Shown here in pieces: positions 47,379 to 62,492 of a DNA stretch of 64,000 bases. The position numbers were made by a program, and so were the translations under genes. Origin of the DNA: Rhodanobacteraceae bacterium (GTDB lineage Bacteria > Pseudomonadota > Gammaproteobacteria > Xanthomonadales > SZUA-5); contig JADJPR010000006.1 in the NCBI GenBank assembly GCA_016713135.1, positions 82,169-146,168 on the forward strand, given 5' to 3'. Below the pieces are notes generated by a model. That model ran no database searches and had not been told where the DNA came from. It was given only the letters and a program-made list of their open reading frames with translations. Each line of letters begins with the position of its first letter. Positions within the stretch are counted from its first letter, which is position 1.

Positions 47379-47852
47379 TTATTCCGAAATTACGCTGAAA
47401 ACTTCTCTCCACAACTCTGGACGGCCGATTCGCTCGAGTCCGAGCTGGATAGCATTCTTGCAAGTCTCGTACTCTAACTCGTCGCTTAATTGATCGACAC
47501 GCAATGGCGTGACCGAGTTATCCGGCAATCCATCCTCATTCAATGGAACATACAACTCGTCTCGATCAGTAAATTCGGAAATTTTCTGGCCCGCCTCGTA
47601 ACATGCTGACGATCGGTACCCAATCCTGGAATCGTAACGAATTAGCAGTGCAAATTCTACATCATGAGAAAGCCGAGCTGATAAACTATCGACTTCGGCA
47701 GTGAATTGATTCTCATCGCGATTGGAGCGATGTAGAATTAACACCTCCAAAGAAATCTCTACCACTTGCATCGATATGTTGATCTCAGCCTGAATCTTCG
47801 CCGCACTAGTTCTTGGCTTAGATAATAGAATCCCCTCAAAAACTACACTCAT
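47379..47852 (-). CDS. Candidate immunity protein for the RHS C-terminal toxin (157 aa, no family recognised)
   Basis: The gene lies in low-GC DNA (~45 %). Its start overlaps the stop of the upstream ORF by ATGA. It sits immediately downstream of a polymorphic-toxin tip, and the product is acidic. Confidence 0.6.
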   Translation of the reverse strand: MSVVFEGILLSKPRTSAAKIQAEINISMQVVEISLEVLILHRSNRDENQFTAEVDSLSARLSHDVEFALLIRYDSRIGYRSSACYEAGQKISEFTDRDELYVPLNEDGLPDNSVTPLRVDQLSDELEYETCKNAIQLGLERIGRPELWREVFSVISE

Positions 47853-48118
47853 TTTAGCTCCGTATAATCCACCGGAATTCCTCCGGTCTCTGCCTCAATT
47901 CTTTTTCTCAACCGCGGACCGACTGCTGCTTTTCCCGTTTGAACTTCAATACGAAGACTGGGTGATACCGTCCCATCCTTCAGATAGTTATCCAATATTG
48001 ATCGGATTCTATCTTTTTCATCGCGGGGAATTGAACGATTAGAACCCAGACTATCACGGATTTCAGAAATATTGTTCCGGAGATTTGACGTAATCGCCGT
48101 GAAATCGTCGTACTGCAA
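47849..48118 (-). CDS. 89-codon ORF overlapping the RHS 3' end by 139 nt. It is probably the true, frameshifted end of the toxin domain rather than a separate gene.
   Basis: It has only a TTG start and no SD. The protein-like sequence LQYDDFTAITSNLRNNISEIRDSLGSNRSIPRDEKDRIRSILDNYLKDG.. contrasts with the implausible tail of the long ORF (..FLKSVIVWVLIVQFPAMKKIESDQYWITI). Confidence 0.45.
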   Translation of the reverse strand: MQYDDFTAITSNLRNNISEIRDSLGSNRSIPRDEKDRIRSILDNYLKDGTVSPSLRIEVQTGKAAVGPRLRKRIEAETGGIPVDYTELK

Positions 48119-61200: not shown

Positions 61201-62492
61201 GTGTTGCGCACCTCGAAATGAATCGTCGCCGCAGAGCCGGCGGGCAGCACGCTTTCCGGCAACTGCCAGGCGCCACCCACTGCGGTTGCACCACTCACCT
61301 GCACCAGTTGCACGGCCGCGCCGGCCTCCGCCAGCAGGCCGCCTGACCACACCTCGGAAATCAGGCTGTACGCGCCGGCAGGCAGTGTCCCGGACGCGAA
61401 CGAAACGGGATGCGCGCCATCGTATCCAACTGTCAGAACACCGAGTGCCCGGGTGTTCTCGGACATCGTCAGGCCGTTGGGTCCGATCAGTCGCGAGCGC
61501 AACTCGGCATTCTCGACAACCACGTTGCCCTGCACGTAGCGCAACCTGGCCTGCAGCTGGATGGGGGCGCCCAGTGTCACCGTTTGCTGACCCGGTTCCA
61601 GGGACAACCACAACAGCGACTCGGCGCGCACGTCGACGAGCGCATCGCGCGAACGAAGCAGCGTACCGGCTGCATCATGCAGTTCCGCGATCACGCGGTA
61701 GCGCCCCGCTGCAACCGTGCCAGGGGTCCAGTCGAAAGGCACGGTCAAGCTCGCTGTCGGGCCGTTCAGCTGAACGGCCTGTTGGTGCAGGAGGGCGACC
61801 AGATGCTGCTGGTCATCGAGCATTCGTAGTGTGAGGCGTCCAGTGAACGACGTCCCGTTCACGACTGTCACTGTGCCATGCAGGGTCTCCGTCGGTCCCA
61901 GCAGAGCGCGATCAACCGTGAGCGCCAGCTCGGGTAGCCCATCGGCATTCACCGTGAACGTGCGCGAGGCGCGATTGTTGGAAAAACTCGATTCCTGGAA
62001 GACGCGAGCAGGGTTCACCGCCACCGAAACGCCGTAGATGCCCGTTTCCGCCAGCGCTGGTGCTTGCCAGGCAACGACCGTCTCGGTCCCCGCCAGCAGC
62101 GGCGGCACAGCCACCGAAAGCGGTGGCATCGATTGACCTGCGGGCGTGGACATCTGCAGTGTCGCGGTGGCTGCCGCGCTCGATGCGCTGCCAATGTTGC
62201 GGATGCGCGCTCCGAAACGCGCGGCGGCTCCTGGCAAGCCTACATTGGGCTGCGCACTGAGGTCCTGGTTGCGGACCTGCAGATCCGGTAGTCCGTCGCC
62301 AGGTACCGTGATGGTGATCGGCAGGGCCGGCCCGCTGTCCAGCTGCCCCGGTGCCGATGCAATTGCGGCAAGGATGTTGTCGCCAAAGGCCAACTCGAAG
62401 GCAGGAAGCCGGAACACGCCTGGCGGCTGCACGATGTGCAGGTCGATGTCGGCCTGGATCGCCCATTCCTCGGTGGCCAGCGCGGCCATCAA
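58239..62492 (-). CDS. Large CARDB / bacterial Ig-like repeat protein (>=1,417 aa). The stop overlaps the RHS start (ATGA), and the N-terminus as listed is probably artificial.
   Basis: CARDB-like units are present (PDLQVRNQDLSAQPNVGLPGAAARFGARIRNIGS..). Ig-like units recur, each opening ..D.TPP.I.I (DRTPPQIDIQG, DTTPPALQF, DGTPPDIEITG, DLTPPDLLIT). The C-terminus contains FADGFE. The reading frame continues upstream once frameshifts are allowed. Confidence 0.8.
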   Translation of the reverse strand: MMAALATEEWAIQADIDLHIVQPPGVFRLPAFELAFGDNILAAIASAPGQLDSGPALPITITVPGDGLPDLQVRNQDLSAQPNVGLPGAAARFGARIRNIGSASSAAATATLQMSTPAGQSMPPLSVAVPPLLAGTETVVAWQAPALAETGIYGVSVAVNPARVFQESSFSNNRASRTFTVNADGLPELALTVDRALLGPTETLHGTVTVVNGTSFTGRLTLRMLDDQQHLVALLHQQAVQLNGPTASLTVPFDWTPGTVAAGRYRVIAELHDAAGTLLRSRDALVDVRAESLLWLSLEPGQQTVTLGAPIQLQARLRYVQGNVVVENAELRSRLIGPNGLTMSENTRALGVLTVGYDGAHPVSFASGTLPAGAYSLISEVWSGGLLAEAGAAVQLVQVSGATAVGGAWQLPESVLPAGSAATIHFEVRNTGAVALSDLPVRARARRQTTGNELASSAYTWSLAAGESRIGTLEVSASGMSIGAILLTLEVPGGSLARMLDVRTALVSDVAPPTITPIRPVNGAFVPGSFDAAVRVLDAHSSISQVELRIGGGAFQAMSPGTGFPGEFRFPVDAPEGPLALQARARDAFGNLGVSVPWSVIVDRTPPQIDIQGVAEGGLYAVPVVPVIQVSDTNLDATILLLDGQPYISGTPMTSEGSRQLFVSATDRAGNRSQRSLRFVIDTTPPALQFTFPAAGAVISATTTAVVLATEPAATVTLTLGGFSAQATADTAGVVSFAAVPLAEGSNLMQASAVDPAGNASPPTTHTVHRSSATVGLFDGDLQPATTASQPGPDLTGTAVINYLGATPVDDIPARLSLVEQASCQTMAQVQWTRNYAPAASAPQTYQFASGALSLGNYVLVLEAHLTDAGGQRVWTVLAQEVIALADLTPPEVALLQPEAGALLPASFPVAAQVSDLYSSIDVVDLLFDQQMPVAMASDPAPRYATQLDGIADGAHGIRVRARDATGHERTEPNPARTVTVDGTPPDIEITGIVDGQLSNQPLVATVTVTDAHPAGTEVLLDGVPHASGTLISAEGAHMLSANATDGAGNQANRELRFTIDLTPPDLLITQPAANSATPLSYLPVVAQTEAGIEVELLNQPAPLVTVSDAQGVARFGAVWLAPGENLLELRARDRAGNLSVIRSVRVMRLTNNTAPVEAALQHPGSVPHGQLLAGMLSVTSTIPDSPHGDELRLDVLGTSQALLARLEWSRPLLQGQAVELPFSYPTSEWPAARVRLQLSWRRLTQPDAAFALIAATEADIRDEILPTLLVLEPVAGATVPDPIPVRAQASDALTGIESVSARVDDGSWIALAPGPAQGEWHGLLPAPAPGLRQLWFRATDGAGNARNLGPLAVCRDGTASWPGFADGFETPAGSSGTSGFESESCATAAKTLQRVIDWLQRDTGRKAHKLPAERAP

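Follow-up and report, generated by a model that had tools for sequence, protein, structure and literature searches.

How RHS or teneurin-like cages of 250-400 kDa that diderm bacteria export through Sec reach their targets without a type VI secretion system (T6SS) or a Tc complex is the question raised by a locus in the 64,000-nucleotide (nt) stretch of Rhodanobacteraceae DNA analysed here (the window). On the minus strand, a 1,417-amino acid (aa) open reading frame (ORF), which we call the partner (58239..62492), is followed by an RHS ORF that is annotated with an ATG start and 3,420 aa (47980..58242). The tetranucleotide ATGA at 58239-58242 is partner stop and RHS start at once, and a GGAG (58251-58254) lies 9 nt upstream of the RHS ATG, with a spacer of 8 nt. 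A preliminary description of this DNA, which suggested that the pair could be an undescribed two-component RHS display or delivery module, was correct in its coordinates, sizes, ATGA overlap and Pfam domains. Our analyses indicate that the locus is an apparently decaying copy of a widespread three-gene operon (partner, RHS toxin and immunity candidate) in a Lysobacterales-type gammaproteobacterium. On balance, we lean towards the view that the operon specifies a surface-displayed, contact-dependent toxin that the partner anchors or presents.

The pairing of the two genes is conserved. With one genome taken per GTDB species, a pattern scan detected the N-terminal module of the RHS protein at 446 loci; this module contains an inactive transglutaminase (TGase) domain and is treated below. 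Neighbourhoods were compared for the best 80 of these 446 loci, and in 61 of them the available sequence extended 3.5 kb or more upstream. In 51 of the 61, an ORF of 1,000 aa or longer on the same strand terminates directly before the toxin gene, and tblastn identified these upstream ORFs as partner homologues. An ATG is possible at a 4-nt overlap in about 22 of the 61 loci, and several others allow one at a 1-nt overlap. The junction of the window (GGAG...ATGA, 58239..58254, minus strand) is retained in the same arrangement in loci L006 and L007. The nearest relatives are metagenome-assembled genomes (MAGs) of a Rhodanobacteraceae bacterium, a Xanthomonas sp. and a member of the Lysobacterales. 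Other carriers include Tahibacter, Dokdonella, Chiayiivirga and Pseudomarimonas in the Lysobacterales, Thermoanaerobaculia and Holophagales in the Acidobacteriota, Paucibacter, Undibacterium and Rhizobacter in the Burkholderiales, and Andreprevotia. The synteny for which the preliminary description had called is thus present in 51 of 61 loci and spans Lysobacterales, Acidobacteriota and Burkholderiales.

In these relatives the partner is commonly a giant. Intact forms measure 5,842 aa (L001) and 5,824 aa (Tahibacter harae), and elsewhere the partner is called as two genes, of 3,430 + 2,450 aa in Tahibacter sp. UC22_41 and 2,511 + 3,259 aa in L002. The second frame of L002 stays open across the junction, which suggests that its split is a frameshift and not a pair of genes. 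Split giants also occur as 4,139 + 1,836 aa and 3,959 + 1,067 aa among L002, L086, L087 and L088, and a split-gene call is found even in the complete genome of a cultured Tahibacter. In the closest relatives, L006 and L007, whose N-terminal modules are 70% and 67% identical to that of the window, the partner frame is open for more than 3,145 codons and leaves the fetched locus. A protein-database search with the window partner returned 5 matches only, since repeat words swamped the candidates; a search with a Tahibacter partner fragment yielded usable full-length giants, though not the query's own protein.

The full-length giants share one order of domains: a signal peptide, a domain of ~330 aa with an HExxH motif, an alpha/alpha toroid like those of prenyltransferases and squalene cyclases, and beta-sandwich domains. 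Their C-terminal portion holds dozens of CARDB, FlgD_ig, fn3 and Big domains as well as propeller-like ones. The ~330-aa domain, in which the motif reads HELMHRWG, has no sequence match in Pfam or the PDB and may be an unclassified, metallopeptidase-like domain. These N-termini were seen in the partners of L086, L087 and L088 and in the proteins P0154, P0148, P0169, P0139, P0132, P0133 and P0157.

A more distant clade with RHS proteins of ~2,400 aa has a small upstream gene instead, encoding 468 aa in Methylomonas albis, 1,171 aa in Permianibacter, 481 aa in a Rhodocyclaceae MAG and 396 aa in Zooshikella. These small partners consist of a signal peptide, a toroid, TSP3 repeats and a He_PIG immunoglobulin (Ig) domain. 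A hidden Markov model (HMM) built from three small-partner toroids only recognises the toroids of the giants, with E-values from 1e-35 to 1e-8, and the Zooshikella protein, with E = 2e-9. In a variant locus where the N-terminal module carries NlpC/P60, two genes downstream lies one whose 1,839-aa product has SQHop_cyclase_C and CarboxypepD_reg domains. Because the toroid is found in giants, small partners and the NlpC/P60 variant, we regard it as the recurring companion of the dead-TGase module.

Partner C-termini offer a clue to location. The partner of Methylomonas and that of Rhodocyclaceae each carry VP(A/L)LP, a transmembrane (TM) helix and a basic tail at the C-terminus, a PEP-CTERM-like arrangement (L003 8564-9970; L091 6493-7938), and an exosortase-like gene (L003) or PEP-CTERM proteins (L091) are encoded nearby. 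These tails point to a surface or matrix location of the small partners. Similar tails, with a TM helix and basic residues, occur on the giants of L060 and L065. No universal C-terminal motif that could act as a docking or secretion signal was found among the partners, which have clade-specific helices only. In the complete genome of Tahibacter sp. UC22_41, the 10 kb that precede the partner contain no secretion-system gene. As a separate observation, a contractile injection cluster of the extracellular (eCIS/PVC) type, with Pvc16_N and phage sheath genes, lies at 29.7-31.9 kb of L087, ~8 kb downstream of a giant with no RHS gene next to it; this may be coincidence.

Compared with these relatives, the window holds a damaged fragment of the partner gene. 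Its 3' part (58239..62492, minus strand) keeps a single frame of 1417 codons with Pfam matches to CARDB, Big_13 (three), Big_7 (two) and Big_3_3; it lacks a signal peptide, and the first codon that could start it is a TTG. Over 1428 aa it shares 46% identity with the partner of L002, and it is 54% identical to that of L006, in one frame. The protein finishes in a short amphipathic helix (AKTLQRVIDWLQR), and its end (...LQRDTGRKAHKLPAERAP) has no TM helix, so that it does not resemble a PEP-CTERM substrate. No beta-barrel, pore or ATPase features were found in the partner by Pfam. The upstream continuation (62493..64000, minus strand) runs off the right edge of the window and specifies fn3/Big-like domains and a propeller-like segment in a broken frame. 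Its colinearity with the intact L006, L007 and L002 partners emerges only when the frame is changed repeatedly: tblastn needs frames -3, -1, -3, -2, -1 and -3 in turn and crosses an in-frame TGA (63536-63538). DNA alignment with L006 and L007 at 62% identity places ~9 non-triplet indels, at approximate positions, near 63907, 63576, 63555, 63534, 63444, 62934, 62683, 62636 and 62489. The adjacent 4.25 kb (62489 to 58239) aligns in a single frame with no indels, and clustering of this kind (~9 in 1.5 kb) is explained neither by uniform pseudogene decay nor by uniform sequencing error. Since intact relatives are of ~5,800 aa, roughly 3,900 partner codons, including those for the signal peptide, would lie beyond the right edge. 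The preliminary description of a protein of at least 1,417 aa made of CARDB and Ig-like repeats therefore holds for the domains and the ORF, which are just the 3' end of a gene of the ~5,800-aa type.

The RHS protein was said to begin with a classical signal peptide, and inspection of its translation bears this out. Its N-terminus, MNAPHAKFSRWAILFLLVGASA|WG, reads as a Sec signal for signal peptidase I (residues 1-24, 58171..58242, minus strand, with an A-S-A site), and the N-termini of L006 and L007 are equivalent. Homologues of the first 1,500 residues form 145 protein clusters, and the segment common to all of them is a module of ~600 aa (residues 190-790, 55873..57675, minus strand) made of an inactive TGase-like core (residues 208-345) followed by helical and beta-sandwich parts. 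Pfam places Transglut_core at residues 208-280 (E = 1.8e-7). In the motif GNDVDQASLL (57460-57489) an Asp occupies the position of the catalytic Cys, and in an alignment of 17 sequences this position is Asp or Ala while the His is conserved; the catalytic Asp is kept in many clades and is Ala in the clade of the window. We therefore regard the domain as catalytically dead. Of the 'transglutaminase-like cysteine-protease core' that had been described, the TGase fold is confirmed and the protease is not, given the changes from Cys to Asp and from Asp to Ala. An active cysteine protease or releasing peptidase was also considered and is ruled out by the lost catalytic residues. Outside the TGase core, SYLEHRVFE (56173-56199; consensus GSxLEHxVFE) and GYFVSGGLAGG (55885-55917) are conserved family-wide, and S682 and E685 are invariant across the module family. 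Besides RHS, the module bears DUF900 alpha/beta-hydrolase, NlpC/P60 or M23 payloads, and it is present in monoderms as well (Oscillospiraceae, P0047; Acidimicrobiia, L083).

This architecture is known. Zhang et al. 2012 (Biol Direct 7:18; PMC3482391) described Sec-dependent RHS polymorphic toxins with an inactive-transglutaminase N-terminus, in which the dead domain comes directly after the signal peptide and before the RHS repeats, sometimes beside bacterial Ig domains. They assigned the class to export by Sec and the type II secretion system (T2SS), proposed peptide binding for the inactive TGase and listed no signature neighbouring gene. Since the dead-TGase RHS architecture was published in 2012, the RHS protein is not itself new.

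Structural models agree with the family searches. An AlphaFold2 model of residues 26-1010 (52 sequences; pLDDT 88.7, pTM 0.81) shows a helical N-terminal region, the TGase-like core, more helices and several beta-sandwiches, and that of residues 991-1620 shows tandem beta-sandwiches at moderate confidence (pLDDT 70). Foldseek matched the models to transglutaminases, the Cytophaga TGase-like protein 3isr and proteins with macroglobulin (MG) domains (complement C3/C4/C5 and alpha-2-macroglobulins), and further to repeat adhesins and S-layer proteins. Whole-chain TM-scores are merely 0.1-0.2, with a root-mean-square deviation near 30 Å, so these matches are taken as domain types, with no claim of homology. 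Neither model contains a PAAR cone, a TcB-type propeller or a two-partner secretion (TPS) domain, and Pfam and NCBIfam found no PAAR, DUF4150, TcdB/SpvB, TPS or VgrG-type family in the RHS protein. The preliminary description, which saw no PAAR, VgrG-binding, TcB or TPS domain at the N-terminus, is upheld by Pfam, NCBIfam and the AlphaFold2 models, and the first finding that it named as fatal to its proposal, a PAAR, T6SS-adaptor or TcB-like domain in this region, did not turn up.

A clade-specific stalk of Ig/MG-like beta-sandwiches follows the module (residues 800-1500, 53743..55845, minus strand; AlphaFold2 and Foldseek). It includes a weak Big_1 match at residues 842-900 (Pfam) and is missing from the ~2,400-aa RHS relatives. 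Next comes the cage (48769..53682, minus strand), which consists of a DUF6531 plug (residues 1521-1588, 53479-53682), an RHS/YD shell with 18 RHS_repeat stretches in Pfam, and the Rhs-associated core; the NCBIfam models YD_repeat (YD_repeat_2x) and, at residues 3080-3158, Rhs_assc_core also match. The core terminates in PGALIDPDG (48769-48795), which fits the pattern PxxxxDPxG that we take to be the Rhs autocleavage motif. Up to residue ~3245-3294 the RHS body is colinear with, and 63-64% identical to, the RHS proteins of L006 and L007. Beyond it the C-termini diverge, and the L006 end is of HNH type; this swap is what would be expected of a polymorphic toxin. Between the cleavage motif and the toxin lies a linker (48304..48768, minus strand) that is partly conserved with L007 and bears Gly/Ala-rich hydrophobic segments at 48568-48633 and 48454-48501.

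The toxin domain itself, of ~150 aa (47849..48303, minus strand), is split by a +2 frameshift. Residues 3314-3367 are read in the RHS frame to ~48142 and the rest in another frame to a TGA at 47849-47851, so that the final ~53 residues of the annotated RHS ORF (to 47980) look out of frame. An 89-aa ORF (47849-48118) overlaps the RHS end and looks genuine as coding sequence; the possibility that it is a separate gene was rejected because it matches the C-terminal ends of a toxin family. A phmmer search with this segment against the full library of 1.84 billion gave 18 matching cluster representatives (best E = 5e-27, 67% identity), and most of the 18 are longer proteins that match over their C-terminal ~95 residues. 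Family members include P0246, a fragment that ends an RHS core, and P0250, in which the toxin domain follows a HINT domain; in P0255 the domain comes after glycine-rich hydrophobic segments. The ~55 residues that precede the match in the family correspond to the RHS frame of the window (...NNIKGTVCENVSDSASRRVGQMPIFRAQRRGGIDIALLERDGSTILR). The two frames join at ILR|EAKF, where the window reads ctccgcgcgaagcc in place of ctccgcgaagcc, and the cause is an extra CG (2 nt) within a CGCGCG tract at 48139-48144. Once joined, the 150-aa toxin aligns end to end with the family and is 66% identical to P0246.

The residues E16, D41, E55-x-K57 and Q63 are invariant in the family, giving the pattern G-x3-E, G-h-D, E-x-K, Q. 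This E..D..ExK..Q order resembles the PD-(D/E)xK nuclease signature and suggests a nuclease-like activity, and we place the window toxin in a small unnamed family with a putative nuclease-like motif. Pfam, NCBIfam and PDB sequence searches returned no significant match for the domain, and for this reason its activity is treated as a prediction; the likeness to PD-(D/E)xK toxins such as Tox-REase-7 is one of motif pattern, and it extends to neither a curated Tox-REase model nor a solved REase-fold structure. Directly downstream, the ATG of a 157-aa ORF (47379..47852, minus strand; GC 0.42-0.51) overlaps the true toxin stop (ATGA). It matched no family in Pfam, NCBIfam or PDB sequence searches, and its position makes it a candidate immunity gene.

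The locus is read as decaying because the partner has ~9 indels and a stop, the toxin has 2 additional nt and insertion sequence (IS) remnants lie downstream. The window copy of the operon is probably non-functional, unless the frame breaks are assembly errors. Other long genes of the window are intact, as is the 4.25 kb beside the damaged partner stretch, and a poorly assembled stretch could conceivably be the source of the partner indels. The translational coupling implied by the ATGA overlap is real in so far as the tight start/stop arrangement is kept in relatives; it is moot in the window copy because the partner is a frame-disrupted fragment and the toxin is frameshifted. A lesson for annotation follows: the '1,417-aa protein' and the '3,420-aa RHS' are frame-damaged forms of genes that are longer or end differently.

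Based upon these observations, we predict that in an intact operon both large proteins would be exported through Sec and the partner would form an envelope-anchored fibre or dock. The dead-TGase module and the beta-sandwich stalk would tether the RHS cage either to peptides of the envelope or to the partner. Inside the cage would sit the nuclease-like toxin; cut free at the DPDG motif, it would pass into neighbouring bacteria on contact, and the small downstream 157-aa protein would shield the producer. For the outer-membrane step, T2SS is our default guess.

Several points weigh against this reading. About 10 of the 61 loci have no partner (e.g. L011, L012, L015, L023, L043, L047 and L079), the Deltaproteobacteria variant with an alpha/beta-hydrolase has none either, and giant partners exist also without a downstream RHS gene. 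Partners vary hugely in size and make-up (468 to 5,842 aa), and their C-termini share no universal motif. A physical interaction of partner and RHS protein is proposed from gene order and homology, the surface localisation of the RHS protein is presumed, and toxin activity and immunity role are deduced from a motif and from gene position. The dead TGase/papain-like fold could instead bind peptidoglycan peptides and keep the protein in the periplasm. Finally, simple decay does not account for the clustering of the partner indels.

A broader form of the display hypothesis is possible, though we hold it with much less conviction: the toroid of the partner and the dead-TGase module of the toxin may each be one half of a widespread system for display or delivery at the envelope that has so far gone unrecognised. 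Carriers of the module number hundreds of species in the Gammaproteobacteria, Betaproteobacteria, Acidobacteriota and other groups. In this tentative scheme, diderms would use the system for wall hydrolases and for polymorphic toxins exported through Sec, with the partner as a fibre or anchor that presents the cage.

It is rather unlikely, in our judgement, that the two are merely co-transcribed neighbours, the one an adhesin or matrix protein of giant size and the other an RHS toxin, which share regulation and do not cooperate physically. The giants without a downstream RHS gene and the RHS/TGase proteins without a partner would be natural under this explanation, and giant genes are common in the genome of the window, since the window encodes two more giant repeat proteins, both unrelated. 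Against this explanation, the pairing is found again in distant clades and in four or more arrangements, 4-nt or 1-nt overlaps are kept in many lineages, and the toroid is the common element, once even downstream of the NlpC/P60 variant.

We are more doubtful still that the partner itself carries the RHS cage across or onto the outer membrane, as a new two-component system in the manner of CdiB/CdiA or TcA/TcB-C. Synteny and coupling kept across several phyla, a homologous toroid in giant and small partners, an RHS protein without another delivery domain in Pfam, NCBIfam or the models, and the 10 kb upstream of the Tahibacter sp. UC22_41 partner, free of secretion genes, all speak for it. In contrast, Pfam shows no barrel, pore or ATPase in the partner, which is built of beta-sandwiches with, in relatives, the HExxH domain and the toroid; proteins of 468 aa and 5,842 aa would need to do the same job; about one locus in six does without a partner; and the partner too would need a route over the outer membrane. 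Since nothing in the partner resembles a translocon, a role as anchor or presenter fits better than one as delivery machine. The proposal of an undescribed two-component RHS display or delivery module therefore survives in part: the pair is conserved and no known delivery domain was found, but the partner lacks translocator features and the toxin class has been known since 2012.

Periplasmic retention is improbable. Here the dead TGase would bind peptidoglycan stem peptides, and the toxin would be released by lysis or vesicles or act against invaders. The same N-terminal module carries the peptidoglycan hydrolases NlpC/P60 and M23, it occurs in monoderms (P0047, L083), where wall binding would be natural, and peptide binding was proposed by Zhang et al. 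(PMC3482391). Nuclease-type C-terminal toxins with immunity genes nevertheless imply delivery into other cells, and the PEP-CTERM-like tails of the small partners point to the surface or matrix. Lastly, an ordinary T6SS (or Tc) Rhs effector with its machinery elsewhere in the genome is highly improbable. In its favour, DUF6531 and the RHS core are common to T6SS Rhs proteins. Against it, the protein has a cleavable Sec signal and no PAAR, prePAAR, VgrG, Eag, TcB or SpvB domain, the window ORFs tested include none for a T6SS or Tc complex, and the class was assigned to Sec/T2SS export by Zhang et al. (PMC3482391).

The conserved toroid-bearing partner and its link to RHS appear to be undescribed in the literature searched, which contained no described partner and no T6SS-independent Rhs export in diderms, save Zhang et al. 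2012 for the class. A Shewanella vesicle paper with the terms 'inactive transglutaminase' and 'Rhs' concerns separate, unrelated genes and was dismissed. A conserved, coupled partner with a homologous domain across distant clades is a concrete and genetically testable candidate for how such cages reach their targets, and culturable carriers exist in Tahibacter, Dokdonella, Methylomonas, Permianibacter and Andreprevotia.

The remainder of the window gives the context of the operon. The other ORFs tested encode two unrelated giant repeat proteins, a hybrid histidine kinase, AceE, a copper-resistance cluster and IS66/IS110 transposases, and Pfam/NCBIfam family scans found 0 T6SS or Tc genes among them. 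It had been noted that no delivery genes lie from 47.3 kb to the right edge. None do, and this is uninformative, for the stretch holds only this operon and the edge falls inside the partner gene. The IS remnants (39790-47157) begin ~200 bp past the immunity candidate and comprise an IS66 transposase (39790-41292, minus strand), IS110-family pieces (44022-44345 and 45889-47157, plus strand) and more transposase-like fragments; GC drops to 0.42-0.57 across 46-48 kb. The two giants, of 3,955 aa (Calx-beta and DUF11) and 2,946 aa (FG-GAP, Calx-beta, DUF11 and Big_3_5), lie within 249-12116 and 16394-25234 (minus strand). Between them is a 1,355-aa hybrid histidine kinase (12053-16120) with Reg_prop/Y_Y_Y and an AraC-type helix-turn-helix. 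The copper-resistance-like cluster (34009-39193, minus strand) encodes a multicopper oxidase, an outer-membrane efflux protein (OEP) and a heavy-metal P-type ATPase with an HMA domain.

Comparison with known systems places the operon among Sec-exported polymorphic toxins. T6SS Rhs effectors (RhsA of P. protegens, Tse5 of P. aeruginosa and Tre23 of Photorhabdus) have the DUF6531 plug, YD shell, DPxG autocleavage and encapsulated toxin in common with the window RHS. They differ in that they begin with PAAR/prePAAR, lack a Sec signal and are partnered by VgrG or Eag; Pfam and NCBIfam found no PAAR, prePAAR, DUF4150 or VgrG/Eag in the window RHS or its neighbours. Tc toxins likewise have a large partner (TcA) beside an RHS cocoon (TcB-TcC) with a C-terminal toxin. 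In contrast, the window has no TcA-like protein, SpvB, TcdB_toxin_midN/midC or propeller gate by Pfam, the N-terminal 1,600 aa of its RHS protein are TGase core and beta-sandwiches, and its partner is predicted to be a beta-sandwich fibre and not a pentameric injector. Of TPS and contact-dependent inhibition (CDI) systems, neither Haemagg_act nor a CdiB/FhaC barrel was found in the RHS protein, the partner or the other window ORFs scanned.

Likenesses to alpha-2-macroglobulin and complement C3-C5 are a lead and not a membership. The N-terminal beta-sandwiches of the RHS protein align with MG domains (Foldseek), at TM-scores of ~0.1-0.2, and the partner toroid is of the same broad fold class as their thioester domain; here these elements are split over two proteins, and the CGEQ thioester motif was not seen in the Methylomonas toroid, the one toroid inspected.

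WapA of Bacillus subtilis and Streptococcus suis likewise combines a Sec signal, an envelope-binding N-terminus, a YD shell and a polymorphic toxin, has an immunity gene where the window has a candidate, and uses no dedicated injection machine. It differs in its cell-wall-binding repeats and monoderm host, whereas the window RHS belongs to a diderm and has a dead TGase, a beta-sandwich stalk and a partner gene. Teneurin-like proteins (Raoelijaona et al. 2026, Nat Commun 17:2753; PMC13018210) are Sec-signal YD-shell toxins of diderms. They resemble the window RHS in N-terminal adhesion domains that vary, in a gene for immunity downstream, for which the window has a candidate, and in an outer-membrane route still to be settled. 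Pfam found no NHL (or TEN_YD-shell) at E <= 0.01 and no FN-plug or TIP in the window RHS, whose N-terminus is a TGase module instead, and no partner has been reported for teneurin-like proteins.

The class of Zhang et al. 2012 is defined by a signal and a dead TGase, in some cases by Ig domains, and then by RHS repeats and a variable toxin that has its immunity gene. The window RHS is built in the same way, with a signal, a TGase that has lost the Cys and Asp of its triad, an RHS array and a variable toxin, followed by a 157-aa ORF that has no family match. The window copy departs from that class in being frame-disrupted. The operon departs from the 2012 description in a more general respect, since most of the loci compared here have, just upstream of the toxin gene and tightly coupled to it, a giant or small partner that bears a toroid.

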